A stretch of 48,701 nucleotides of DNA from a virus (IMGVR_UViG_3300046460_000418); one strand, 5' to 3'; numbered from the stretch's first letter, positions 4,160 to 47,391 are shown. Made by a program: numbers and translations. Notes: generated by a model not told the origin, from the letters alone.

Positions 4160-6448
4160 TCAGTCGGGCTGTTCGTCCTCGTCGGGATATGAGGCGGGTG
4201 TTCCCTCATCGGCGGCGGGCTGTATGCCTTCTTCGGAGCTTTGTTCTGCTGGTCGTTGTTGTGTTGGCTCACGAGGTTCCTCTCCTTCTCTTATGATTTC
4301 GACCACGTCCCCGTTGGGGTCGACCTGGCCGGTCAAACGGTCAGCCGTAATGGTGGTCGCACCAGGCGGCAGCGTAAAGTCAGAAAACTCTATCATGCCT
4401 TCGGAGCGGTCGAGAATACGCCGAACAACAGGAGCGACGGTCTCACCACCGGCAGCACCTTTATGGAGTGGGCGATAGTCGTCATGGCCAAGCCAGGACA
4501 CGATCACATATTTCGGACCAAAGGCGGCAAACCAGACATCTCGCGATCCATTCGTCGTCCCGGTCTTGGCAGCTATCGGATGCTTGAAGCCGGAAAATGC
4601 ACGGCTGGCCGTACCTGCATAGGTGACGCCTTCGAGGATCGAGGATAGCTGCGCGACAGCAACAGGATCGAAGTTGACGCCGGGATCGCTATGCACTGGC
4701 ATATTGTGCTTGAAGAAGCTTGCCCGGACCGGTTGACCGCCATTGGCGATTGCCGAATAGGCTACAGCGACATTGAGCGGCGACATTTCGACCGTTCCAA
4801 GCGCCATCGCGTAGGTGGCCTTCTCGGGCATCTGGAGGCCGACCTTGACGGCAGTCTCTCGAACCTTCTCCTCCCCCACATCGTAAAGAAGGCGGACGGT
4901 GGCGTGGTTGCGCGACTTCTCCAGCGCCCGGCGTAGCGTGATCAGTCCGAGACCCTTTTCATTCTGCTGGGGCCGCCAAACGGGAGCGCCGTCACCGCTG
5001 TCCAATTCGATGGGGCTGTCGAGAACGGGAGACATGGCATTGTAGCCCATCTCAAGGGCCGTCAGATAGACGAATGGCTTGAAAACCGATCCTGGCTGCC
5101 GCTTGGCTTGGGTCGCGCGGTTGAACTCGCTCTGTTCGGAACTGAACCCGCCGTCCATTGCCATGACGGTCCCGGTCGTCGGCTCCATCACGACGACAGC
5201 GCCCTGAACGTCCGGGACCTGCAGGATTTCCAGTCCGTCACCAATATCACCGACCAACACGGCATCGCCCAGTCTGATCAAGGACGATGCCTTGCGACCT
5301 GTCCAGGAAAGAGAGTTGATAGGCACAGAGACGACACCAGTTTCCGTTTCAAGCGCGATGGCTTTGCTAAGGCTGCGAACGACAGCAACCTTCCAGCTCT
5401 CTGCACCGGCCGGGGACTTGAGGCGATCATCATCCCAGTCGATGGAACCGGAGATGCCGCGAGCCAAAGTGCCGTGCCAACCGGTCTTCCGGTCTTCCAT
5501 CACCAGACCTCGGCGCAATTCCTCGTGAACTACCTTTTGCAGTGGGGCCTTGAGGGTTGTCTTCAGATCGCCACCATCGCTGTAGAACTTGTCAGAGCCC
5601 ACTTCAGCGATCTGAAGTCGTCGGACAGCTTCTTCGGCATAGCCATAGGCAGGGTCGCTGATCCCGGAAACCGGATCGGAACCCTTGGCCGTCACGAGCG
5701 GCAGGCCGCGATACCTGGCAGCGTCTTCCGGTGTGACATAACCAAGCTTCGCCATACGGTCGAGAACGTAATTGCGGCGCTCGGTGGCCTTACCGATGTT
5801 GGAGAACGGGTTCCCGGCAGATGGAGCCTGCGGGAGTCCGGCAAGCACAGCCGCTTCGCTTGGCGTCAGCTGATCGAGTTGCTTGCCGAAGTAGCGGTTC
5901 GCAGCTGCTTTGACGCCATAGACGCCCGACCCCAAGTAGATTTCATTCAGGTAGATTTCGAGAATTCGATCCTTGCCGATCTCTTTATCGATCTTCAGCG
6001 CCAGCAGCGCTTCCTGAATCTTTCGCTTCATCGTGCGTTCAGGGGTGAGAACGACGTTCTTGATCACCTGCTGATCAATTGTCGAACCGCCACTGATGCG
6101 GCCACCCTTGAGATTGGAAATGAAGGCCCGAGCGACGCCGACAGGATCGACGCCCTTGTGCTTCCAGAAATTTCCGTCTTCCGCCGAAAGGAAAGCAGCG
6201 ATGACAAGGGGCGGAATTTGATCGAGGGCAACGAATTCCCGGTATTCCTTCGCATGCACCCCAAGGACCGTACCGTCGTCGCCCAGGATGCGGCTGCCCT
6301 CTTTCGGCTGCCATTGACCGATCTTGCTGATGTCGGGCAAATCCTTCGACATTTCCTTGACGTAGGAAAGTGTGATCGACGCGCCAAGGATCGATGAGAC
6401 GACAGCCAGCACTGCTGTCCCTGACAGGATAGTTTTTGGAAGGCTCAT
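4160..6448 (-). CDS. mrcA: Class A penicillin-binding protein (PBP1A family, transglycosylase + transpeptidase)
   Basis: N-terminal TM; GT51 motifs AEDGNF, GGSTIDQQVIKN, RKIQE; transpeptidase SVFK, SRN, KTGT. Confidence 0.93.
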   Translation of the reverse strand: MSLPKTILSGTAVLAVVSSILGASITLSYVKEMSKDLPDISKIGQWQPKEGSRILGDDGTVLGVHAKEYREFVALDQIPPLVIAAFLSAEDGNFWKHKGVDPVGVARAFISNLKGGRISGGSTIDQQVIKNVVLTPERTMKRKIQEALLALKIDKEIGKDRILEIYLNEIYLGSGVYGVKAAANRYFGKQLDQLTPSEAAVLAGLPQAPSAGNPFSNIGKATERRNYVLDRMAKLGYVTPEDAARYRGLPLVTAKGSDPVSGISDPAYGYAEEAVRRLQIAEVGSDKFYSDGGDLKTTLKAPLQKVVHEELRRGLVMEDRKTGWHGTLARGISGSIDWDDDRLKSPAGAESWKVAVVRSLSKAIALETETGVVSVPINSLSWTGRKASSLIRLGDAVLVGDIGDGLEILQVPDVQGAVVVMEPTTGTVMAMDGGFSSEQSEFNRATQAKRQPGSVFKPFVYLTALEMGYNAMSPVLDSPIELDSGDGAPVWRPQQNEKGLGLITLRRALEKSRNHATVRLLYDVGEEKVRETAVKVGLQMPEKATYAMALGTVEMSPLNVAVAYSAIANGGQPVRASFFKHNMPVHSDPGVNFDPVAVAQLSSILEGVTYAGTASRAFSGFKHPIAAKTGTTNGSRDVWFAAFGPKYVIVSWLGHDDYRPLHKGAAGGETVAPVVRRILDRSEGMIEFSDFTLPPGATTITADRLTGQVDPNGDVVEIIREGEEPREPTQQRPAEQSSEEGIQPAADEGTPASYPDEDEQPD

Positions 6449-7083
6449 TACTGCTTTTTACCTTGGCCACTCGGTTTGGGGGGCGAAAACATCGGCGGAA
6501 GCGTGGATGCCAAGGAAAGCAAAAGTGTGGCATCCGGCGCTTTACCGTTGATGCGCACGACTGGCTCCAGTGAATGCGTTTTCTGATACAGTAGCAAGAG
6601 CTTCACGGCATCCCCGGCGAAAGGAATTGCCTTGGAAAGGCTGCGCCAGCCGTCGATTGCTGCCCGCCGGGCTCCTTCATGAAACACAGCGCCTGCGGTC
6701 ACCAGAGCAACCTCGCAACCAGAAAGTTCTCGCTTGAAGGCCGCAAGCTTCGGGTCATCCATCCGAAGACCGTCCACTTTCGGCGCGACCTGATGGATCA
6801 ATTCGAGCTGATCGGCGAATTCAAGGACCGCGTCGTAGCGCTGATCGACCTTCGGTTCATCTTTCAGATCGAGTGCCATCGGCGAATGGGAAAATCCTCG
6901 GCCGTAAATGAAGCCGCCAGCCACCATGAAGGCGTTTGAAACGGCCAGAACCTGTGCTTTTTCAATCGGCGATAGCGTGGTCAGTCGGGGAACGACACGC
7001 GGAGCGATTTCGCCAAGGGCAGCAAGGACTTTTTTCTGCTTAACAAAGGAAAACATGGATGTGCTCCAAAGGAATTTATCCAT
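6448..7083 (-). CDS. Hypothetical protein, about 200 aa
   Basis: TAATG stop/start overlap with PBP1A implies an operon; no motif recognised. Confidence 0.7.
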   Translation of the reverse strand: MDKFLWSTSMFSFVKQKKVLAALGEIAPRVVPRLTTLSPIEKAQVLAVSNAFMVAGGFIYGRGFSHSPMALDLKDEPKVDQRYDAVLEFADQLELIHQVAPKVDGLRMDDPKLAAFKRELSGCEVALVTAGAVFHEGARRAAIDGWRSLSKAIPFAGDAVKLLLLYQKTHSLEPVVRINGKAPDATLLLSLASTLPPMFSPPKPSGQGKKQ

Positions 7084-7189
7084 AATCCACGGCTTTTAAT
7101 TCTTTCTCAATAGATTGTTTTTAAGATGAATTTGACTCTGGGAATAATAGTTGACATATTTCCCTTGGAAGGGTGCTTTGCGAGGGAAA

Positions 7190-7738
7190 ATGCAACCCGA
7201 TGACAGTTTTAAGAAAGAGTTGGTAACTAGCCTTCCGAAGTTGAGGCGATTTGCCATGGTTTTGACCCGGAACCGTGAAGTTTCCGAGGACCTGGCCCAA
7301 AACACCGTAGAACGGGCTTTACAGCATTGGCGGCAGTATGAACCGGGCACTTCGATGATCGCCTGGCTTTACACGATCATGAAAAATGCTCACATCGAGG
7401 ATTATCGGAAAGATAAGTCCAGACGGAAGCAGTTTGAAGGATTTAAGCTCGATCTGCGCACGGACCCCTATTTTTTCCAGACCGCTCCCGAAGGAATTGA
7501 CCGGCTTATGTTGAAGCAGACCGGCATGATCATCGAAGCGATGCCTACGGCGCAAAAGGAAGCCTTGTACCTTGTTGGGCTGGAAGGTTATTCTTACGAA
7601 GAAGCCGCTGTCGTCTTGAAATGCGAAGTCGGAACAGTTAAGAGTCGGGTATCGAGGGCAAGGGAACGACTATCTCAGGTGTTCGACGAGGAATTCAAGA
7701 CAGGGCCGAAAAAGCCCCTGAAGTTTGAAATGGTTTGA
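7190..7738 (+). CDS. ECF sigma factor, EcfG/SigT (alphaproteobacterial general stress)-like
   Basis: LPKLRRFAMVLTRN..EDLAQ..YEPGTSMIAWLYTIMKN and EGYSYEEAAVVLKCEVGTVKSRVSRARERL; ATG 7190 after GAGG SD; TTGACA at 7151. Confidence 0.88.
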   Translation: MQPDDSFKKELVTSLPKLRRFAMVLTRNREVSEDLAQNTVERALQHWRQYEPGTSMIAWLYTIMKNAHIEDYRKDKSRRKQFEGFKLDLRTDPYFFQTAPEGIDRLMLKQTGMIIEAMPTAQKEALYLVGLEGYSYEEAAVVLKCEVGTVKSRVSRARERLSQVFDEEFKTGPKKPLKFEMV

Positions 7739-7822
7739 AAATGCTGCGATTTGTAATGCTCAAGCGAAAATCCCTGCACCGGGTAACACCTGGCTAGGAT
7801 TTCTGCTGCCTGCATTATCTGC

Positions 7823-7854
7823 AAGGGCCACGGGAAATCCGGCGGCCCTTTTTT
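7823..7854 (+). terminator. Rho-independent terminator after the ECF sigma gene
   Basis: AAGGGCC...GGCCCTT stem followed by a T run. Confidence 0.65.
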
Positions 7855-7935
7855 GTTGCCCGGTGCCGAAAACTTCCAAGGAAATCAGGAGTTCGGGACC
7901 ACGACCAACGCGTGGATCGGGCTTCTTCGTGATTT

Positions 7936-8007
7936 AAGCTAAGCCATTGAAAATAAACAGAAAAAAGTATTTTTGTTGTTGACTTTGTTTCTCGAAGGCG
8001 CTATCTT
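7936..8007 (+). promoter_or_regulatory. tRNA cluster 1 promoter: conserved upstream block, -35 TTGACT, 17 bp spacer, -10 TATCTT
   Basis: -35 at 7979-7984, -10 at 8002-8007; upstream block nearly identical to 46516-46563. Confidence 0.75.
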
Positions 8008-8030
8008 TAAAATCATCGAGAACGACATAC

Positions 8031-8107
8031 GGGTGCTTAGCTCAGTTGGTTAGAGCATCGGCCTTTTAAGCCGAGGGTCCAGGGTTCGAGCCCCTGAGCA
8101 CCTACCA
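8031..8107 (+). tRNA. tRNA-Lys(UUU)
   Basis: Canonical cloverleaf, anticodon arm TCGGC-CTTTTAA-GCCGA, GGTTCGAGCCC T-arm, encoded CCA. Confidence 0.95.
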
Positions 8108-8123
8108 TCGTTTTCAAGGAAAT

Positions 8124-8201
8124 GGGTGCCTGCCTGGAAGTGGGAATCAGGGCTGCCTCTTAAGCAGCGACATGTCGGTTCGATCCCGACGGCACTCACC
8201 A
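8124..8201 (+). tRNA. tRNA-Lys(CUU)
   Basis: Acceptor GGGTGCC/GGCACTC, anticodon arm GCTGC-CTCTTAA-GCAGC, T-arm GTCGG-TTCGATC-CCGAC, ACCA end; atypical D-arm. Confidence 0.88.
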
Positions 8202-8217
8202 TCCTTCCCTAATTCGA

Positions 8218-8304
8218 GAGAGTATGACCGGAGCGGCGACTGGTGCGGCCTTTTAAGCCGTTTGCGAAAGCACAACGTGGGTTCGAGTCCCACTGCTCTC
8301 ACCA
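8218..8304 (+). tRNA. tRNA with UUU (Lys) anticodon and long variable arm (class II body)
   Basis: Acceptor GAGAGTA/TGCTCTC, D-stem ACCG/TGGT, GCGGC-CTTTTAA-GCCGT, variable hairpin TGC-GAAA-GCA, T-arm GTGGG-TTCGAGT-CCCAC, ACCA. Confidence 0.85.
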
Positions 8305-8309
8305 TTTCA

Positions 8310-8612
8310 TTATTGATCCTCAAGTCCGGCCAATAGTTCGTCGAGATCAGCCTTAGACATCTCGTCGATCCTCGCAGCCTGACGCTTGGAATTGACGCTC
8401 GAACCATCTGGCAAATATGCCAGAACGGACTGTGCAATGGCGTCAGCTTGCGAAAACTCGGCACCCGGGCGGTTCACGATAACACTCACCAGGTCCGGGC
8501 GGTCTATAGCAGCAACGGTGGCTTCAAAACCCGCTGCGAGCATATCTTCCCGGATTTTGTCGGGGCTCCAGTCAGTCGAGGGCATCTCAAACAGGGTTTC
8601 GAATAGGGGCAT
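8310..8612 (-). CDS. Hypothetical protein, 100 aa
   Basis: Clean ORF convergent on the tRNA cluster, co-oriented with upstream genes. Confidence 0.65.
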   Translation of the reverse strand: MPLFETLFEMPSTDWSPDKIREDMLAAGFEATVAAIDRPDLVSVIVNRPGAEFSQADAIAQSVLAYLPDGSSVNSKRQAARIDEMSKADLDELLAGLEDQ

Positions 8613-8709
8613 GAACGGGCTTCTTCGGAGGTTTCAGCGAAATCTACCCGAGCATCCTAAATGCGGCGGGTTGGAAAGGAAAGATGCTCTAGCCAGGGAC
8701 ATCGCGCCA

Positions 8710-9354
8710 TTACGCCACGGCCACGAACAATTCGAGTTCATCGGCATCTTCATCAGCCTCAATGTCCCGCTTCATCAGGTCGACGATGTACGCCTGGATG
8801 TTGCGCTCAGCGATGTCCTTATCCGGATACTGGTATACGTCGCCAGGAGGGCAATGAACTTGAAGGTTGGGTACTCGGCCACACCCGACGACAGCGATGG
8901 CTCCGAGTTTGGTCAACGAGTCCTTCCAGTCGGTCGGCCGGGCGTCCGGGGCGCAATCGAAGTCGATCTCCCAGGTGTTGTAATCCGGAACGAGCGCTCC
9001 TGCCTTGGCAAGGTCGGACGCCTTGGCGGCAAAGAGGACGGGAAAGCCGGTTTCGGTCCCGGCTTTATTCAGCGCAAATTTCAACGACATGTCGACACTG
9101 CTGGACCAGTAGGCGCATTGCAGAATGTCACCGCCGGAATGGTCCGGACCGGGCCCGGGACGGTAGACATAGGATTTCTTGGCGTCGAAGCCGTTTTCAA
9201 CAATCGAGATGGCAGATTTCTGCGATGTGCCATGGAAAAGCCAGGGATCGTTGGCCTCGGATGTTGCTTCCATCTCCCGGAACAGTGTCTCGATAGCGGC
9301 CCAATTTCGAATTTGGTCGGTATCCATCAATGTCGAGGGCGGAATAACGAACAT
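8710..9354 (-). CDS. ADP-ribosyltransferase-fold protein (H-G-T / Y motif)
   Basis: WLFHGTS..ISIVENGFD and AYWSSSVDMSLKFA resemble strands 1-2 of HYx-clade ARTs. Confidence 0.6.
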   Translation of the reverse strand: MFVIPPSTLMDTDQIRNWAAIETLFREMEATSEANDPWLFHGTSQKSAISIVENGFDAKKSYVYRPGPGPDHSGGDILQCAYWSSSVDMSLKFALNKAGTETGFPVLFAAKASDLAKAGALVPDYNTWEIDFDCAPDARPTDWKDSLTKLGAIAVVGCGRVPNLQVHCPPGDVYQYPDKDIAERNIQAYIVDLMKRDIEADEDADELELFVAVA

Positions 9355-9445
9355 GGCATTCTTCCAACGGTGTCGGGCTCATATTTCCCGACACCGTTGC
9401 CAGCCGCAAACCAATTGTGCAACAGGCTGTTGCACAATTGTGCGG

Positions 9446-10537
9446 TCAGACTTCTTCCCGTTCGCCCCAAGGCACTGTCGCTGGAATAGCTTCAATCCGC
9501 TCGATCTTTTGGCTGCAGACCCGGCGAAGTAGCTCCGACAAGCCACTCGTATCCTTGCCGACGCGCAACACGAGGCCTTCGCTCCGGACCATCCGCTTGC
9601 TATCACCGCCTTCCTGGTACCAGAAAGAGGAATATCCGTCAGATGCCGCAAAGCTCAGAACTGCCGTGTCGGTCATGACGCTGAAGCGATTGCAGGGGAG
9701 TTTCTTGAAGAAGTTGTCGATGCGGGAATAGAACTCGCGTGCATCGTAAGCCATGATCGAGAGGATCACCGCCTGCTGCATCGGGTGAAACGGGAAATCG
9801 TCTGGTTCTGGCTGGGATTCGCTCAAAAGCCAGGTGAGGGCTCCTCTCCACATGGCGGCGACGAGCAACTCATAGGATTCCTCCTCATCATGGTAATTGT
9901 CCTTCGTCCAGCGTGGGATGAACGGCGTCTTACCGATAGCGACGGCATCTTGAACCTCCAGCAGCGCCGCCACTGACAAATGGGCTCGGGCCGCGATGGT
10001 GCAGACGCGATAGGGCAGGCGACGTGGGGCAATCATCACCCGATCCCTGTTGTAGTCCCCCCACCAGAATGTGTAGACGCTTCGGAAAGGTTCAGTTGCG
10101 CAACGACCATGGGCCTTGTGTTCCTCCGTCGCGTCTTCTTTCTTGAGCGGCCAACCTCCGGGTGGGCAGCGATCCGGTGGGTAATAGATCAGGTCTTCAC
10201 CCTTTCCAGGAGCCAAGTTGCTGCGACCGCGATCCTGGAGCCAGACATCGACGCCTTGGAGGCATGCACCCCAGATGTCGGCGAGGCAAGCGATGACGAA
10301 GGCTTTCTGGACGCCGAAGCGGGCAACCAGCCCTTCTTCGAGGAAAAGATCGGCCCGGTCGCGCTCGTCATCGTATTTTTCGAAATAGTCCCAGAGTTGG
10401 TCGCCCTCGCGGAAAACGTCGGTGGTTTCAGCGGCCGCGATCATCATGCCGAGGGGCGGCACAATCGGGACTGCGATAAACTGGTCTTTGGAGTGTTTTT
10501 CAGCGCGTTCGCGCAAAGTTTGATAGAGAGTGGTCAT
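9446..10537 (-). CDS. Hypothetical protein, about 363 aa (likely start MTTLYQ)
   Basis: Long ORF with AAGGA SD upstream of the ATG at 10537; no family recognised. Confidence 0.75.
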   Translation of the reverse strand: MTTLYQTLRERAEKHSKDQFIAVPIVPPLGMMIAAAETTDVFREGDQLWDYFEKYDDERDRADLFLEEGLVARFGVQKAFVIACLADIWGACLQGVDVWLQDRGRSNLAPGKGEDLIYYPPDRCPPGGWPLKKEDATEEHKAHGRCATEPFRSVYTFWWGDYNRDRVMIAPRRLPYRVCTIAARAHLSVAALLEVQDAVAIGKTPFIPRWTKDNYHDEEESYELLVAAMWRGALTWLLSESQPEPDDFPFHPMQQAVILSIMAYDAREFYSRIDNFFKKLPCNRFSVMTDTAVLSFAASDGYSSFWYQEGGDSKRMVRSEGLVLRVGKDTSGLSELLRRVCSQKIERIEAIPATVPWGEREEV

Positions 10538-10752
10538 TGTGTGATCCTTTGAATGAGTGCTGTTAGAAACGGAGGCACAAGGATCAGGGCGGGGCACGGG
10601 CCCGGCGCAGATGCAGGATATTTGAGCTGTCGGTTAGAACCGAACGGACGACCCGTTTGGAAGAGCTACTTGAACTTGTTCATGCGGGCTCGCAATTGAA
10701 CGGCGATGCGTTACCTTTGATGCTGTTCCAAACTCGGCTCGCTGTAAAGAAA

Positions 10753-11172
10753 ATGTCCAAGATCGATCTCGAAACACCCGTGATGACCATCGAAATACAG
10801 GAAAACATGGTCGTTCCGCGCATTGTTGCGCCCTACCACAGCGGCGAATTCGTCGCCGTTAGGCCGATCAACAAGGATAAGAGTGAGGAAAAGACCTACT
10901 TCGGCATAATGCTGGGTGACATGAATATCGGATTTGGGCATCGTCTCGATGGTGACACCATCACCGTCACGGGGCACATCGGCAACCCCGCCATTTTCGT
11001 GCCCAAGCTTGCACAGATCGTCTATGGCGCTGAATCGTTCTGGAAACTCATCCAGTCGGAGGAGCAACTGACCGCTATCGAGGATGACGATCTGAAGCGC
11101 TGGGCCTCTCAAATCGCTGAACAGATCACCAAACGCCAGGAAATGCGCGAGAAAATCCTCGCTGAAAATTGA
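10753..11172 (+). CDS. Hypothetical protein (phage/plasmid-type)
   Basis: GEFVAVRP..KTYFGIMLGD..NPAIFVP..IVYGAESFW has the look of a conserved mobile-element hypothetical; start uncertain. Confidence 0.7.
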   Translation: MSKIDLETPVMTIEIQENMVVPRIVAPYHSGEFVAVRPINKDKSEEKTYFGIMLGDMNIGFGHRLDGDTITVTGHIGNPAIFVPKLAQIVYGAESFWKLIQSEEQLTAIEDDDLKRWASQIAEQITKRQEMREKILAEN

Positions 11173-11226
11173 TCCTTGCGTCGGTCGATGTTCCCATTTT
11201 CCTATACCAACGGATTTGGCATCGAC

Positions 11227-12390
11227 ATGAAAATCAACAGCGCAGGGCAAAGCTCACCCGAAATGGATATTGCGCGAGCCAAGCTTTCAGGCGGCGCTCC
11301 GCTGATCACAATGGTCGACGAAATCGTCAGCCACGACACCGTAAAAGCGCAACTGATCGTCGATGCCTTTGGCACAAAGGCAGGCATTCGCATTACCTTG
11401 AAGCAATCGATGGCCTCGCCCGACTTCCGTTCGCTATCCACGGCGATCAAGGGCAACGAGTTCTCTGCTCCTTTGCGTAAGGGCGATGTCCTATGTTTCA
11501 ACCAGGTTTATGCGGATACCGTTGACGGCCTGACAGTCGCGATGGTTGGGCAGGTGACCGCTCGGACCAACGACAAGCTTCGTGGTGACGTGCAGCTACT
11601 GACCGCTATGGCCCGGCCATCGAAAAGCTCGAACAAGAAAGCCAGTGGCGCAACCCAGTACCTGACGATTGTCGAAGCGACAAAAGCCATGAGCGTCGGC
11701 TCGTTCGACGACGTCAAAAAGGCATGGGATGTCGTCAAGGGTCTCAAATCCCCCGGCGGGTCGGCTGGGTTCGTGATCCGCGACCGGTTGGCCAAGCAAG
11801 GCGGTGACTGGTTCGAGAAAAAGGGCGAGTCGATCCAGGTATTTATCGACGAGCTGGATCAGCAGGATGCGTTTGTCGGAGATGCGCTGATTGAACTGAT
11901 CCCTGCATGGTCAGTCAAGATGTCGAGGGACCAGGTCGCTCAGGATATCGACCTGCGTAACGAGACAACTCCGACAATCGGCCGGGTCGGCAAACTGTTC
12001 GACTTCGGAGACAAGAAGGGCATTCTGGGCTTTCACCCCTGCGCAATCATCATTGCCGACGAACCGGAGACCGGCTTCAACAGTTCCTTGACGGGCAACG
12101 TCATTCGGGCCGTGGCGGGAATACAGCCGTGCTACCAACGTAAGGCGGTCAACTTCCTGGCGCTTCCAACCAACCTGCGTGAGTTTGACGGAAAGCCGAA
12201 TCGCGTTGCGAACTACTGGACCGATGAACAGGTCTCGGCTTTGAAAGCAGAGCGCGTTGGCAGACGTGGGCCGGATGCACCGATTGCCAAACCGACCACG
12301 GCAGCTGGAAGCGACGCCAAAGATGAATTTGAAGCACCCGATGCTGGCTTCTCCGGAACTCGACCCATTCGCATGGGTGGCCGGGCTTAA
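11227..12390 (+). CDS. Hypothetical protein, about 387 aa
   Basis: Long ORF, codon usage consistent with neighbours, followed by an inverted repeat. Confidence 0.75.
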   Translation: MKINSAGQSSPEMDIARAKLSGGAPLITMVDEIVSHDTVKAQLIVDAFGTKAGIRITLKQSMASPDFRSLSTAIKGNEFSAPLRKGDVLCFNQVYADTVDGLTVAMVGQVTARTNDKLRGDVQLLTAMARPSKSSNKKASGATQYLTIVEATKAMSVGSFDDVKKAWDVVKGLKSPGGSAGFVIRDRLAKQGGDWFEKKGESIQVFIDELDQQDAFVGDALIELIPAWSVKMSRDQVAQDIDLRNETTPTIGRVGKLFDFGDKKGILGFHPCAIIIADEPETGFNSSLTGNVIRAVAGIQPCYQRKAVNFLALPTNLREFDGKPNRVANYWTDEQVSALKAERVGRRGPDAPIAKPTTAAGSDAKDEFEAPDAGFSGTRPIRMGGRA

Positions 12391-20373: not shown

Positions 20374-21219
20374 TTAGATCGTGATGGCAGTAGCAAACGG
20401 TCGGTCGGCGACCCTGGGCGTTGCGTTGTTGAAGACGAACTCAGTCAAATTCTCAAGCACAGCCAGAGCAGGCATGTTTGGAACACGATCAATGGTCATC
20501 GTCATGACCGGCTTTTTCGGACGATACTCCTCAGGGATTCTTGCGAGCACCTCGGGATCGAGCGGACGTTCGATTCGATAGCGCCGCACGAAGCTGCCGC
20601 GCCGGACATGTTCCGGCAAGGCATCGAAGTCGATGCCCTTGGTGGCCAGCATGGCTTTGCGGTCCACGCTCGACTTTCCGCTGAGATCATTGGCGGCGAA
20701 GTGCTTGAGGGCAACCGCCTCAACAGTCGACTTACGCGCAATGGTTTCGCGCCATAGAAAGAATTTCGCGGCCACTTCCTCGCTCGGAAAGGCAAAGGAC
20801 CGAGCAATGAACTGCGGGAGCACCAGCTTGTTGTTCGGATCACGGAACATGGCGGGGAAACGTTGATGGGCGAAATGAACGACCGCTGCCGACAAGGTCG
20901 ACGCAACCGATACCGACATATCGCCATGACTGCCCATTGATTTCCGCTGGCTGTCCCTGAAGCGCATCAAAAGCGAAACCTCGCTCGCGTGGCTGTATGT
21001 GATGAGCCCGGAGTAGCTCTCAATCAGGTGCTTGGTCGCATCGATGATGACGTCAGTGAACGCGGCGCGGTTCTCCGGAGCCAGAGAGCTGATGATTTTC
21101 TGCAGGTTCTGGCCTTCGAGATGAACGATAACTGGCACTTCGTTCTCGATGGCAGTTGTTCTGTCATCGATCAAAAAGCGGGAGAGTGCTTGTCCGAGCC
21201 CGTCGCTAACAATTGCCAT
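20374..21219 (-). CDS. tRNA(His) guanylyltransferase Thg1-like protein with altered catalytic carboxylates
   Basis: VIVHLEG, YSHASEVSLL, PQFIARSF, FFLWRE, KGIDFDALPEHVRRGSF follow the Thg1/TLP layout. Confidence 0.75.
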   Translation of the reverse strand: MAIVSDGLGQALSRFLIDDRTTAIENEVPVIVHLEGQNLQKIISSLAPENRAAFTDVIIDATKHLIESYSGLITYSHASEVSLLMRFRDSQRKSMGSHGDMSVSVASTLSAAVVHFAHQRFPAMFRDPNNKLVLPQFIARSFAFPSEEVAAKFFLWRETIARKSTVEAVALKHFAANDLSGKSSVDRKAMLATKGIDFDALPEHVRRGSFVRRYRIERPLDPEVLARIPEEYRPKKPVMTMTIDRVPNMPALAVLENLTEFVFNNATPRVADRPFATAITI

Positions 21220-23717: not shown

Positions 23718-24215
23718 TTAGATTGAAAATCCCGAGGGTTCCAAGGCCGGTAATTCAATCCCAAATTCGGCCGCGATCATCGAAAGATTGATAATCGCCG
23801 CCACAGGAACTGTTGTCGTATAGGCAACCTGATTGCTGGTCGAAAGGCTCAATTCCCATGGAACGTCTTGCCAGCGCTTGAAAGGCCGGAGGCGTTCGTC
23901 GATCTCAAGGTCGGAGGGCTCGACACCCCGGGCATCGTCATCGATGTCTCCATGGATATCCTTGAGCCTGCCGACCAGGTCGTAGTCGTCGGGTTCGAGA
24001 TGGGACCGGTCGACCATATCCGGATCGATTTCAAGGACGACTGCACGACCGCCGCGCCGATCACAGCTCAACACCGAATATTCGTCCGCATGGTTTTCGC
24101 AGTCGGTCAGATAGATCGCCGTCCGTGTTTCATTGTCTGTAGAGACCTGCGGAACGAGGCCATCCCTGATGATCGCTTTCAGTCGCGCAGTCGTGGTGCC
24201 ATGGTAGAACTTCAT
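23718..24215 (-). CDS. ADP-ribosyltransferase-fold / Tpt1-KptA-like protein ending EPSGFSI
   Basis: MKFYHGT..AIIRDGL, AIYLTD..HADEY, VVLEID, VPVAAI resemble small HYx ART domains. Confidence 0.65.
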   Translation of the reverse strand: MKFYHGTTTARLKAIIRDGLVPQVSTDNETRTAIYLTDCENHADEYSVLSCDRRGGRAVVLEIDPDMVDRSHLEPDDYDLVGRLKDIHGDIDDDARGVEPSDLEIDERLRPFKRWQDVPWELSLSTSNQVAYTTTVPVAAIINLSMIAAEFGIELPALEPSGFSI

Positions 24216-44304: not shown

Positions 44305-44682
44305 CTACCGCATTCCAGGGGTAGACGGCTCATCATCAATCTCGATTTTACCGGTGACGATGTCGAGCACAAGCTTCTCTGCATCCTCGTAGAAGAGGTG
44401 CTGTTCACAAGCCCAGTCGATATACTCCCTATAGCTGCTGCCTTTGGCGGGTGGTGGTGATGACCACCTGTGCTCGGCCTGAGCTGCCGACTTGGCCACA
44501 ACTGGCTTCGCAGGGGCGACACGGGGTGGCGCTGCAGCAGGAACGGGAGGGCGTGTTGCCTGGACTTGCGGCCGAGGCGAGAACCCCGGTCGAGCGGGCG
44601 CACCGGGGCGAGCGGCAGGCGAAGGTGTGGGGGATGCGGTGTGCCCGGCGTTCGACTGCCCTCCACCAATCTTAAATGCCAT
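44305..44682 (-). CDS. Hypothetical protein, Pro/Ala-rich N-half, small C-terminal domain, ends DDEPSTPGMR
   Basis: Overlaps the CCA gene end by 11 bp, same strand. Confidence 0.65.
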   Translation of the reverse strand: MAFKIGGGQSNAGHTASPTPSPAARPGAPARPGFSPRPQVQATRPPVPAAAPPRVAPAKPVVAKSAAQAEHRWSSPPPAKGSSYREYIDWACEQHLFYEDAEKLVLDIVTGKIEIDDEPSTPGMR

Positions 44683-45853
44683 AGCTGGGTTTCTCCTCGA
44701 TATCAGCCGACATTTCGACCAGGTCGTCCTTGGAAAGTGTGAATTCGCTGTCCTTCCATGCCCTGGTCAATCGCCTAAGCTCCTGCCCCAGTTCAACGCC
44801 GGGCTGATGACCAATAGCAAGCAGATCGCGTGCGTGAAGCGGAAAGACCGGGACATCTGCAAGCATTGCTTGGGCCGCTTCGCTGCGGTTGGTCACCTTG
44901 AGCACAGGAATGGCCGTTGCGCTGTCGAGCCCCTCGACCTGCTTGCAGCGCCAGTAGTGGGGCGAACGCGTCAGATCGGCTTGCACGGCCGCTGCCGTCG
45001 TTACTCGAAGCCGTTCCGTATTCGACAGCTTCCAGGACGACGCGAAGGCCTCGGCCGAAGCAGGGTCGTCAAAGAACGATCCCAACAGAATTGCGGCATC
45101 ATTGGTTGCTTTTCGAATTCTGGAGAACTTCAGATTTCGTTGGATGTCGAATTCCGGCAAGCCAATAGCCTTGGAGACACCGAGCATCTCCATCAGGATC
45201 AATTGCTTCTCACCCGTCTGCGAAGACAATATCTGGCTGGTCTCCTTCCAGATACGCTCAGCTGAAATCTGGCCGAGCCCCGGCGCATGGTTGGCAATCG
45301 CTGCCAGAGAATATCCATCATCCGACGACGCATTGCCAAAACGGGCGCGGAAGCGGAAGAAACGAAGGATGCGCAGGTAATCTTCCTGGACGCGTTCCTC
45401 AGGATCGCCAACGAACTTAACGCGGCCCATCTTGAGGTCGTCAGCACCACCGAAATAGTCGTGCAGCTGACCCGTGTGATCGGCCGACATCGCATTGAAG
45501 GTAAAGTCGCGGCGGGCAGCATCAAGACGAAAATCCTTGATGAAGCTCACATCGGCCCAACGGCCATCCGTATTGCTATCGGTACGCAGGGTCGTGAACT
45601 CGTATCCTTCGCCCTCGTGGACGACAGTGACGGTCCCATGCTTCAAGCCAGTCGGGATTACCTTCAGGCCATGATTGTCGGCGATTGCCATGACGTCCTC
45701 GGGCAATGCATCAACCGCGAAGTCGAAGTCTTTTGGCTGGAGGCCCAGGATGCGGTCCCGGACAGCCCCGCCAACCGGACGTGCTTCGACACCCTCGCGA
45801 GCATAAAGTGCTGCAAGCATTTCAACACTGCGATTTCCGAAATCTATCCGCAT
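44672..45853 (-). CDS. cca: CCA tRNA nucleotidyltransferase (class II)
   Basis: VGGAVRDRILG, DFDFA, EFTTLR, DAARRDFTFNAM, EDYLRILRFFRF; likely start MRIDFG. Confidence 0.93.
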   Translation of the reverse strand: MRIDFGNRSVEMLAALYAREGVEARPVGGAVRDRILGLQPKDFDFAVDALPEDVMAIADNHGLKVIPTGLKHGTVTVVHEGEGYEFTTLRTDSNTDGRWADVSFIKDFRLDAARRDFTFNAMSADHTGQLHDYFGGADDLKMGRVKFVGDPEERVQEDYLRILRFFRFRARFGNASSDDGYSLAAIANHAPGLGQISAERIWKETSQILSSQTGEKQLILMEMLGVSKAIGLPEFDIQRNLKFSRIRKATNDAAILLGSFFDDPASAEAFASSWKLSNTERLRVTTAAAVQADLTRSPHYWRCKQVEGLDSATAIPVLKVTNRSEAAQAMLADVPVFPLHARDLLAIGHQPGVELGQELRRLTRAWKDSEFTLSKDDLVEMSADIEEKPSYGI

Positions 45854-46331
45854 AGCGCTGCGCGAGCCCTTTCCTTGAGTTTCTTTTCCACCCAGAGGCG
45901 GAACACATCGTCTGCCTTCATATATTCCTGCAATTGAGCGGCCGACAGCTGCTCCGTGAGGAAGCATTGAAGAAGAAGATCGTAACGATTAACCACTGAG
46001 GCGACCCGATGCAAGGAAATTTGAAAAAAGGATGACAGGGTTCAACGAGAGAGAGAATAGCCGAGAAGACGTGACAAAGAAATGGCAGGCGTGATCGGGA
46101 CATGGTCCTGCACGATGGGCGACAATGTTGACGTTTGCCAACGCAGTTGCTAGGTTGTTGTGGTCGCTCTTAATGGGCGTGGATTGAAACAACGATGAGG
46201 GACGACATGTCTTTCGTGCTGAACATCGCTGTACGTGATGAACGTTCTGAAGAGGATATCTTCAGGCGGCGCTAGCGTATGCAGGGCCGCCAGAGAAGGC
46301 GGCCATCGTTGAAGATCGAAAAGATTTCACC

Positions 46332-46718: not shown

Positions 46719-46793
46719 GCCCCTATCGAATATGGGTTAGTTCAGCAGCTTTTCACGTTGCTAAAGAGAGTTCGAGTCTCTCTAGGGGTACCA
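46719..46793 (+). tRNA. tRNA-Glu(UUC)
   Basis: Acceptor GCCCCTA/TAGGGGT, GCAGC-TTTTCAC-GTTGC, GAGAG-TTCGAGT-CTCTC, ACCA. Confidence 0.85.
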
Positions 46794-46817
46794 TTCGTTT
46801 GGACATTTTTGAGAATT

Positions 46818-46894
46818 GGTGCTGTAGTTCAGCTGGTTAGAACATCCGCCTGTCACGCGGAAGGCCGAGGGTTCAAGTCCCTTCAGCATCGCCA
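46818..46894 (+). tRNA. tRNA-Asp(GUC)
   Basis: Canonical cloverleaf, TCCGC-CTGTCAC-GCGGA, GCCA end. Confidence 0.95.
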
Positions 46895-46911
46895 CAATTT
46901 GAAGAATACCT

Positions 46912-46990
46912 TGCGCCGCTTCCGTAGTGTTGTGGTGAAGCACCCGGGTCTCCCGGAGGGTCGAGTTCGAATCCGACCGGTTGCGGCGCA
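46912..46990 (+). ncRNA. tRNA-like RNA with collapsed anticodon arm and extended acceptor stem
   Basis: D-arm GTGT-TGTGGTGAA-GCAC, CCGGG-TCT-CCCGG, GTTCGAATC T-loop, TGCGCCGC/GCGGCGCA outer stem, no CCA. Confidence 0.6.
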
Positions 46991-47005
46991 AGGTAACGAA
47001 GGTCT

Positions 47006-47080
47006 GGGCTATTCGTCTATCGGTTAGGACATCTGGTTCTCAGCCAGAAAAGAACGGTTCGATTCCGCTATAGCCTACCA
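47006..47080 (+). tRNA. tRNA-Glu(CUC)
   Basis: Acceptor GGGCTAT/ATAGCCT, TCTGG-TTCTCAG-CCAGA, GGTTCGATTCC, ACCA. Confidence 0.9.
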
Positions 47081-47102
47081 AACCTTCAAGGAAATACTCG
47101 TG

Positions 47103-47215
47103 AACCCCGTCGTCCAAGTTTCAGGACACCATAGGTCACGCAGACGGCGCAGTGTGCATGCGTAAAGAACCTGCGGCTGACAGTGAAATCAGGGTGTGAA
47201 ATCCCTGCGGGATAT
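47103..47215 (+). ncRNA. tRNA-like RNA with greatly enlarged anticodon region
   Basis: D-arm GTCC-AAGTTTCA-GGAC, T-like arm CAGGG-TGTGAAAT-CCCTG, CCCG/CGGG partial acceptor, nested helices in between. Confidence 0.5.
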
Positions 47216-47219
47216 AGAA

Positions 47220-47309
47220 TTCGAATGCAGCGCCGGTCGTCTATCGGTTAGGACGCCCCCGGTCAGGGGGTAAGATGGGTTCGATTCCCATCCGGAAGCT
47301 GCATTCGAA
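47220..47309 (+). ncRNA. tRNA-like RNA with 5-nt anticodon loop and 12-bp acceptor extension
   Basis: D-arm identical (18 nt) to tRNA-Glu(CUC); CCCCC-GGTCA-GGGGG; ATGGG-TTCGATT-CCCAT; TTCGAATGCAGC/GCTGCATTCGAA. Confidence 0.65.
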
Positions 47310-47317
47310 ACCAGATT

Positions 47318-47391
47318 GGCCACGTCGCCCAGTGGTAGGGCACCTCACTGTCGATGAGGTTCTCGGGAGTTCGCTCTCCTCGTGGCCGCCA
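47318..47391 (+). tRNA. Variant tRNA-Asp(GUC) with 6-nt T-loop
   Basis: Acceptor GGCCACG/CGTGGCC, CCTCA-CTGTCGA-TGAGG, GGGAG-TTCGCT-CTCCT, GCCA. Confidence 0.75.

Follow-up and report, generated by a model that had tools for sequence, protein, structure and literature searches.

The window analysed here is a stretch of 48,701 nucleotides (nt) deposited as viral (IMGVR_UViG_3300046460_000418) and derived from a rhizosphere metagenome. At positions 8218–8304 of its plus strand, which also holds the promoter-like site and the other two tRNA-Lys genes described below, it carries a genuine, conserved and structured tRNA gene that joins the lysine anticodon UUU to a long variable arm. According to textbooks and current reviews, only the Leu, Ser, Tyr and Sec (selenocysteine) tRNAs of bacteria have long variable arms. 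Judged by its sequence, the gene belongs to a covarying phage-type family of long-armed tRNA-Lys (anticodons UUU and CUU), with sister long-armed tRNAs for Asn, Thr(UGU) and others. We read it as a functional, Lys-charged phage-type tRNA, the most likely benefit of which is lysine decoding under nuclease attack, and we assign to this combined reading a probability of roughly 60%. The product may be a spare tRNA-Lys that tRNA-cutting defence enzymes cannot destroy, by analogy with the phage systems considered below.

ARAGORN called a tRNA-Lys(ttt) of 87 nt at these positions. The Rfam tRNA model RF00005 recognised the gene with 42.2 bits (E = 5.5e-7), above its gathering score of 29, and treated the additional nucleotides of the variable region as an insertion. 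Unconstrained folding with RNAfold gave a cloverleaf with a fifth, extra hairpin, at −31.9 kcal/mol. The acceptor stem is formed by GAGAGTA (8218–8224) and TGCTCTC (8294–8300), including a U6-G67 pair. The anticodon arm (8245–8261) has the stem GCGGC/GCCGT, with G39, C40 and C41 in its 3′ strand, and the loop CTTTTAA (8250–8256), in which the anticodon TTT lies at 8252–8254. The variable region (8262–8276) is 15 nt long and reads T, TGC (8263–8265), GAAA (8266–8269), GCA (8270–8272) and CAAC. It is followed by the T arm (8277–8293; stem GTGGG/CCCAC, loop TTCGAGT), the discriminator A73 at 8301 and an encoded CCA at 8302–8304. The long variable hairpin and A73 had both been pointed out in the initial annotation, and direct reading of the sequence bears them out.

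The gene combines features of two tRNA classes. Its variable region exceeds the 10 nt with a stem-loop by which class II architecture is defined, having a 3-base-pair (bp) stem and a GAAA loop, and it also has the short (3 bp) D stem and the Tyr/Ser-type D loop of that class. Conversely, the CTTTTAA loop has the seven nt, U33, U34-U35-U36 and A37 of a tRNA-Lys (U or C at position 34), and A73 is the tRNA-Lys discriminator. The 15-nt core of the anticodon arm, CGGCCTTTTAAGCCG, is the same as in the class I tRNA-Lys at 8031–8107 of the window, an identity that had been proposed earlier and was confirmed from the sequence.

The register of the D arm was set by covariation among the homologues. 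The initial annotation had seen no spare nucleotide at position 26, which requires the D stem ACCG/TGGT, and the outer pair of that stem (alignment columns 10/29) is formed in only 42% of 19 homologues. The shifted stem (columns 11–14/25–28, CCGG/CTGG here) is paired in 81% of the same homologues, with changes on both sides. Because columns 11–14/25–28 covary and columns 10/29 are mostly unpaired, we place a 3-nt connector TGA at 8225–8227, a D stem of 3–4 bp (CCGG 8228–8231 with CTGG 8240–8243), the D loop AGCGGCGA at 8232–8239 and U26 at 8244. When the alignment was fitted to the model (n = 27), the three inner pairs of the D stem held and the fourth was formed in 16 of the 27 sequences. In this register A14, G18G19 and A21 of the D loop fall at their usual places. 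An extra base before the D stem is also found in the Tyr tRNAs of Caulobacterales and Methylobacterium. Compared with host tRNAs, the D-arm region has a mean identity of 0.645 to Tyr, 0.639 to Ser, 0.575 to Lys and 0.545 to Leu, the lowest. With a D arm nearest to host Tyr and Ser tRNAs, and a variable hairpin that is a conserved, covarying helix, the earlier description, in which the anticodon arm is that of Lys and the body that of class II, stands.

The closest copies of the gene, retrieved by BLAST and pattern scans, lie in RHph_I1_18, a T4-like phage of Rhizobium (89 nt, with the annotation tRNA-Lys), in a 480-kb phage contig and in a 1-kb metagenomic tRNA array. More distant copies are present in the Caulobacter phage phiCbK and its relatives, where both anticodons, CUU and UUU, occur, the Brevundimonas phage Kikimora and the Rhodobacter phage RcXuper, and further ones in the Ruegeria phage V10, the Mesorhizobium phage Cp1R7A-A1, the Xanthomonas jumbo phage XacN1 and a Microcystis phage. 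Each of these is recorded as a tRNA-Lys and is 87–91 nt long. The family cloverleaf was paired in 94.4% of cells, against 70% in shuffles, and 21 of its 24 pairs were changed on both sides; pairing collapsed once the partners were slid by one to three columns. Compensatory changes were found in every helix among the homologues, which puts the structure well outside what chance would give. The 7-bp acceptor stem (99%, with all 7 pairs covarying) and the 5-bp T stem (100%) are paired almost throughout the family, and the helix of the variable arm is paired in 94.9%, with 3 of 3 pairs covarying, among 27 relatives. A family model, R1, gave 95.9 bits to the 8218–8304 gene, 75–98 to the members and no more than 78 to the class II (Ser and Tyr) tRNAs of the host; the score of the window gene is partly circular, because its sequence was among the 19 used to build R1. 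Support that is independent of R1 comes from the 79–80% identity of the gene to the loci L001 and L003 (the latter from the 480-kb phage). Its nearest neighbours are long-armed Lys tRNAs (0.71–0.80), followed by long-armed Asn, Cys, Tyr and Ser tRNAs (0.72–0.74), and the best class I tRNA-Lys reaches 0.66. The combination is not a local, one-off chimera: the gene is part of an old, diversified phage-associated family with UUU and CUU members.

These data bear directly on whether the gene could be a pseudogene in decay or could resemble a tRNA by chance. The Rfam score of 42 bits, vs 72 for the neighbouring canonical gene, would fit such an origin. Against it, all the helices are intact and the compensatory changes among the homologues contradict decay; the gene recurs without any difference in the DNA of two other metagenome runs; and the gene is conserved on the plasmid pRlX5, described below, despite strongly diverged flanks. 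We consider this explanation to have a negligible probability.

Two side observations concern the family itself. The locus L094:4601–4713 holds a long-armed tRNA-Lys(CUU) of 113 nt (75 bits on R1), in which an inserted hairpin of about 26 nt, resembling an intron, directly follows the anticodon loop. In the phiKZ-like Pseudomonas jumbo phage PA1C (L150:591–677), the sole tRNA-Asn(GUU) is 87 nt long and has a Tyr-like D arm, CCCGAGCGG, an extra hairpin, GGCGAAAGCC, and G73.

Then, we evaluated how the family is distributed between viruses and cells. Viral contigs were scanned with a pattern composed of the UUU anticodon loop, the CGAAAG hairpin core and the T loop, and with the corresponding CUU and Asn GUU versions. 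The scan matched 87 contigs with the UUU loop, 34 with the CUU loop and at least 120 with the Asn GUU loop, and on 188 fetched viral loci (L152–L339) ARAGORN confirmed the long form for 116 Lys and 78 Asn tRNAs; these Lys and Asn counts derive from patterns that we chose ourselves, and related phages are not independent samples. The UUU pattern was absent from all 401 Pseudomonadota genomes scanned. In 302 genomes (151 Rhizobiaceae and 151 Alphaproteobacteria), R1 found no family match and nothing above 78 bits, and all its matches of at least 75 bits were 90-nt tRNA-Ser. A lineage-specific pattern had no match in 185,579 species-representative genomes. The cellular sample for the family search comprised about 700 genomes, which are samples only; the unpublished genome G084 was one of the 101 Rhizobiaceae in the count of LysRS classes, and probably also entered the R1, anticodon-arm and DUF4435 searches, and no conclusion depends on it. 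The initial annotation had allowed that such genes might prove common among ordinary genomes, and none was found in the cellular genomes searched. Since the family occurs in hundreds of viral contigs and in none of these cellular genomes, it appears to be a design of phages and mobile elements.

The long arms in phage tRNA arrays are specific to certain isoacceptors. Among isotypes that the scan patterns did not select for, such as Thr, Cys and Ile, long arms were present in 11 of the 65 Thr(UGU) tRNAs of the 188 viral loci vs 0 of the 51 Thr(GGU) and Thr(CGU) tRNAs (one-sided Fisher p ~0.001, with related phages not being independent). In the same loci, 10 of 25 Ile(UAU) tRNAs were long, about 7 of these 10 with a recurring arm of the CAGATTAG type, as were 10 of 40 Cys(GCA) tRNAs.

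Isoacceptor specificity is one of the points that separate a selected arm from a neutral one. The gene could be a working Lys tRNA whose extra arm is a historical accident of no benefit, in a region that LysRS, EF-Tu and the ribosome ignore, and which arose either when a class II tRNA changed its anticodon (Tyr GUA to Asn GUU to Lys YUU) or when a hairpin was inserted in the variable loop. Coherently with this, the nearest neighbours of the long-armed Lys tRNAs are mixed (29 long Asn, 28 short Lys, 17 Tyr and 12 Leu), which suggests several origins and easy arm gain; the arm is variable in sequence and ranges from 11 to 18 nt in length, with one copy lacking a stem; and long arms occur at low frequency on many isotypes. 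Conversely, a neutral arm would hardly be kept in hundreds of phage contigs and be absent from the roughly 700 cellular genomes, and the covariation of the arm helix indicates selection on structure. Nor would it be expected to mark Thr(UGU) and no other Thr tRNA, or to be retained by the window and pRlX5 over a protein divergence to 36–53% identity. On balance we judge a neutral arm to be unlikely, although far from negligible. The more specific proposal of a single origin from tRNA-Tyr was rejected, as the nearest neighbours are mixed and Ser and Tyr are inseparable by D-arm similarity.

The amino acid carried by the tRNA was evaluated from the discriminator base, the identity elements and the codon usage of the element. 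Lys identity depends on the anticodon and A73, all three UUU bases are determinants, and a transplanted UUU anticodon confers Lys acceptance, while N73 is marginal for class I LysRS (PMC9976931). Among the CCA-encoding genes of the viral loci, the discriminator of the 64 long-armed Lys tRNAs is A73 in 43 and U73 in 21, and never G73, and half of the close relatives have U73. The long-armed Asn tRNAs have G73 in 45 of 46 cases, Tyr and Leu tRNAs always have A73, and Ser tRNAs mostly G. If the body of the tRNA set its identity, the Lys and Asn versions would be expected to have one common discriminator; the discriminator follows the anticodon and not the body. Furthermore, the two long-armed genes of phiCbK are the only tRNA-Lys among its 26 tRNAs.

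A different identity had been among the proposals of the initial annotation, as a missense tRNA inserting Leu or Ser at AAA codons. More generally, TyrRS, LeuRS or SerRS could charge the class II body, so that Tyr, Leu or Ser would be inserted at AAA. SerRS and LeuRS are largely indifferent to the anticodon, and the D arm is Tyr/Ser-like. The determinants of bacterial tRNA-Tyr are G1-C72, A73, U35 and a long variable arm (PMC9976931), all present in the gene; in the anticodon, however, the window gene has U at 34 and 36, where tRNA-Tyr has G and A, and it thus falls outside the tRNA-Tyr identity set. Coming to Ser, the G73 and the arm stem of about 5–7 bp of that isotype are replaced by A73 and a 3-bp arm, unsuited to SerRS, whereas the host tRNA-Ser have G73 and arms of 6–7 bp. 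For Leu, A73 is present and the D arm is the least similar of all. Moreover, the discriminator tracks the anticodon, the U73 of 21 of the 64 long-armed Lys tRNAs is unsuited to TyrRS or LeuRS, all three anticodon bases are Lys determinants, and phiCbK relies on long-armed genes as its sole tRNA-Lys. AAA accounts for 109 of the 416 Lys codons (26%) in the genes of the window, e.g., thyA, metG, mutL and nrdE; a missense reader of AAA would therefore damage these conserved enzymes of the element. This disfavours the missense proposal, which we hold to be very unlikely. A minor tyrosylation of the window copy by TyrRS may occur, on the basis of the shared identity elements. A second identity, Tyr above all, by which the element would deliberately insert a residue other than Lys at a fraction of AAA codons, as a programmed mistranslation on a mobile replicon, is equally improbable. 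Conversely, we are rather confident that the gene encodes a Lys-accepting phage-type tRNA.

The class of the synthetase was also considered, because the class I enzyme leaves the variable region facing solvent. Class I is the only LysRS in Caulobacterales, in Roseibium and in 74 of 101 Rhizobiaceae (73 of 100 without G084). LysRS of Xanthomonas and Pseudomonas is of class II. As a necessary reason for the tolerance of the arm, class I LysRS was rejected: Ensifer has class II, and the design is also found in phages of Xanthomonas, Pseudomonas and Microcystis.

The gene is the third of an apparent operon of three different tRNA-Lys, spaced by 16 nt and all with an encoded CCA. A sigma-70-like promoter site (TTGACT, 17-nt spacer, TATCTT) at 7979–8007 is the sole such site in 7700–8800 by consensus scan, a match that alone is no proof of function. 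The first gene (8031–8107, 77 nt; ARAGORN, Rfam 72 bits) is the class I tRNA-Lys(UUU), and the second (8124–8201, 78 nt; ARAGORN) is a tRNA-Lys(CUU) of odd build, whose D loop, GAAGTGGGAAT, is 11 nt long and which scores below the Rfam tRNA threshold. Two UUU tRNAs of different build thus share one operon. This redundancy, together with the context of phages and mobile elements, would agree with a non-decoding role, as a decoy or sponge that titrates tRNA-Lys nucleases or toxins, or as another tRNA-like regulatory RNA. What speaks against such a role is that the features needed for translation are kept and covary (7/5 acceptor and T helices, T loop TTCGAGT, G18G19, the 7-nt loop with U33 and A37, and CCA) and that long-armed genes alone supply the phage tRNA-Lys of phiCbK. 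We give this explanation a very low probability.

Further observations were made on the other two genes. The first, although canonical in build, is of phage type, being 97.6% identical to a tRNA-Lys of the Sinorhizobium jumbo phage Phosso. In the Phosso record (L007:8589–8664), the same tRNA region includes an annotated tRNA with anticodon CUA, labelled tRNA-Pyl, a candidate amber suppressor. The second gene matches only the Rfam tRNA-Sec model, with 20 bits. It adjoins the long-armed gene also in pRlX5 (L002:2994–3069) and in the 480-kb phage (L003:4873–4950), and an identical copy with different flanks is present in a contig of a plant-metagenome RNA library. In X22, the one RNA library with words of the window, words from the canonical tRNA-Lys and the odd CUU tRNA only were found, both in other sequence contexts. 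Nothing in X22 covered 8218–8304, and since its contigs are unable to show transcripts, this library is uninformative on expression.

As an explanation of the whole, the product of 8218–8304, the third gene of the promoter-led operon, would be a functional, lysine-charged elongator tRNA that decodes AAA and, through wobble pairing, AAG. Recognition by LysRS would depend on U34-U35-U36 and A73, and the extra arm touches neither. The most likely benefit would be that lysine decoding is maintained when nucleases of defence or competition systems, of the PrrC, RloC, PARIS AriB or Schlafen kind, attack the ordinary tRNA-Lys of the cell. The tRNA would be a poor substrate for these enzymes through its non-host stem (G39 and C41) and the arm emerging beside that stem. 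The extra arm could hinder an enzyme clamping the anticodon stem, because it exits the core immediately 3′ of that strand.

PrrC and RloC target tRNA-Lys(UUU), and bacterial Schlafen cuts it at 30/31 (PMC13056530). AriB of PARIS cuts it between 40 and 41, and changes at 39 and 41 make the tRNA-Lys of phage T5 resistant (PMC12409363). The usual arm of Rhizobiaceae, CTGACTTTTAATCAG, has U39-C40-A41, the E. coli motif, and was present in 41 of the 61 genomes. In the window, the two UUU tRNAs have the arm CGGCCTTTTAAGCCG with G39-C40-C41 and differ from the host at 39 and 41, the presumed nuclease recognition sites, taking the E. coli AriB data as the guide to which sites matter. The arm CGGCCTTTTAAGCCG was found in a tRNA of 1 of 101 Rhizobiaceae genomes and is common to the Rhizobium-linked phage copies. 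The AriB-type domain DUF4435 was present in 5 of 101 Rhizobiaceae genomes. Furthermore, the trio of remodelled tRNAs, Lys(UUU), Asn(GUU) and Thr(UGU), matches the target set of E. coli AriB (PMC12409363). In RHph_I1_18, which has 27 tRNAs, the long-armed Lys gene adjoins the genes for RNA ligase A and polynucleotide kinase, apart from the main tRNA arrays. A nuclease-resistant tRNA-Lys was the other proposal of the initial annotation, and it agrees with this neighbourhood, with the non-host stem and with the occurrence of the family in phages and mobile elements.

Several points weigh against this reading. The case for nuclease escape, although plausible, is built on analogy with E. coli PARIS and T5. 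Pfam scans of the window proteins recognised no nuclease gene. U39 is kept in 18 of 27 close relatives, the change at 39 being limited to the Rhizobium-linked group. Long arms occur also on Cys, Trp, His and Ile(UAU) tRNAs, of which Cys, Trp and His are not known AriB targets. The copy of the 480-kb phage has a variable region of 11 nt with no obvious stem, so the hairpin is not strictly required. The G1-C72, A73, U35 and long arm overlap the determinants of bacterial TyrRS, and the selection inherent in the Lys and Asn counts, mentioned above, applies here too. Taken together, that the arm and the stem were selected for nuclease escape has, in our opinion, a chance slightly short of even. An attack-and-replace model, with a tRNA nuclease encoded in the window itself, was rejected, as Pfam recognised none there.

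Once the tRNA had been placed, we considered the element that carries it. Among the gene content of the window, Pfam recognised ThyA, DHFR, dUTPase, two sigma factors, PBP1a, MutL, UvrD, MetRS, NrdE/NrdI and a CCA-adding enzyme, alongside many orphans. The region 4160–11709 is syntenic with a segment of pRlX5, the 1.3-Mb plasmid of Rhizobium leguminosarum TP16 (L002, NZ_CP140867.1 141460–147588), at a protein identity of 36–53%: 53% for PBP1a, 36% for the hypothetical gene that follows it and 36% for an ECF sigma factor, with a further open reading frame (ORF) also shared. On pRlX5 the ECF sigma factor gene is followed by an odd tRNA-Lys(CUU) and then by a long-armed tRNA-Lys(UUU) of 91 nt. 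Because this cluster is kept at 36–53% protein identity, the long-armed gene has been retained on pRlX5-like replicons through deep divergence, and by the same synteny a cultured strain, TP16, carries a relative of the "parallel housekeeping" element of the window. The element looks like a large rhizobial megaplasmid-like replicon with its own MetRS and CCA-adding enzyme. Its interpretation as a relative of known jumbo phages was rejected, since UvrD and PBP1a were unmatched in Phosso, Atu_ph07, RHph_I1_18 and the 480-kb phage contig. A megablast of 20 kb of the window had the tRNA as its only match, with no deposited phage close, and a scan for PBP1a homologues returned distant matches only, at no more than 49% identity. 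The ORFs at 20374–21219 and 23718–24215 had no Pfam match at E ≤ 1e-5, and their Thg1-like and Tpt1-like labels are unconfirmed and were left unused. Beside the gene of the CCA-adding enzyme (44672–45967), four more tRNA genes form another cluster at 46719–47391, in the order Glu(UUC)-Asp(GUC)-Glu(CUC)-Asp(GUC).

A large, conserved set of Lys tRNAs, and also of Asn, Thr(UGU) and other tRNAs, thus appears to break the long-arm rule. Its carriers are nearly all large phages, joined in the present case by a megaplasmid-like element of rhizobia. The family is large and apparently undescribed in the literature: no description of a class II-shaped tRNA-Lys was found in full-text papers, including those on the phiCbK genome, non-canonical tRNAs, allo-tRNAs and tRNA identity, a coverage that is incomplete, most subscription journals being outside it. 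The long genes of phiCbK were deposited plainly as tRNA-Lys, and their shape went unremarked in the genome paper (PMC3556154). Four findings are new here. Such a gene is present on a megaplasmid-like replicon of rhizobia, and a cultured strain has its ortholog; three genes, all for tRNA-Lys, form an operon in which a non-host anticodon arm, altered at 39 and 41, is shared; the discriminator statistically follows the anticodon; and among the Thr tRNAs the long arms are specific to Thr(UGU).

tRNA-Lys(UUU) is the tRNA most often attacked by bacterial defence nucleases (PrrC, RloC, PARIS and Schlafen), and the genes described here bear on whether an added arm and changes at 39 and 41 are a general shield against nucleases of the anticodon arm. 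They also indicate the extent to which a class II body is tolerated by LysRS, EF-Tu and the ribosome, knowledge that is of use in designing orthogonal or nuclease-proof tRNAs. The practical effect is modest, as the anticodon leads annotation pipelines to the correct label, although checks with isotype models will flag the mismatch.

Finally, the gene was compared with known systems. The phage T4 enzymes Pnk and Rnl1 repair tRNA-Lys cut by PrrC. The problem is the same, i.e., the supply of tRNA-Lys under nuclease attack, and in RHph_I1_18 the neighbours of the long-armed gene are of the same two kinds, RNA ligase A and polynucleotide kinase; in contrast, T4 repairs a cut tRNA whereas here an alternative tRNA would be supplied, and no repair gene was confirmed in the window. 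The tRNA-Lys of phage T5 (PMC12409363) is like that of the window in being a tRNA-Lys(UUU) of a phage or mobile element that stands beside the host's own and differs from it in the stem at 39 and 41. The trio of Lys, Thr(UGU) and Asn(GUU) is also the set of isoacceptors most often remodelled in phages. The tRNAs of T5 remain class I in shape and owe their escape to point changes, whereas the window tRNA adds a whole arm and a class II-type D arm, its resistance being hypothetical.

The allo-tRNAs, and the (8/4) tRNA-Ser and tRNA-His found in phages of Alphaproteobacteria (Mukai et al. 2017, PMC5389517), resemble the family in their long arms, their location in phage tRNA clusters and, for some, anticodons unexpected for the body. 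They differ in their 8/4 or 9/3 acceptor/T helices and in D arms like those of tRNA-Sec, and are presumed Ser acceptors, whereas the window tRNA has 7/5 helices and falls outside their definition. Bacterial tRNA-Tyr and tRNA-Ser share with the window gene a long variable arm whose stem is short, a D stem of 3–4 bp and a D loop of the GAGYGG type, and the window copy also has A73 and G1-C72. In contrast to them, the window gene has UUU and not GUA, the family has A73 or U73, its members are the Lys isoacceptors in phage arrays, and the arm is shorter than in tRNA-Ser. The genes of phiCbK and its relatives (JX100813; Gill et al. 2012, PMC3556154) differ from that of the window in their U73, in a different anticodon stem and in being phage-borne rather than on a plasmid-like replicon; they resemble it in their length (87–91 nt), in the extra hairpin and in the presence of both CUU and UUU versions, and they can be aligned with it and score 79–98 bits on R1.

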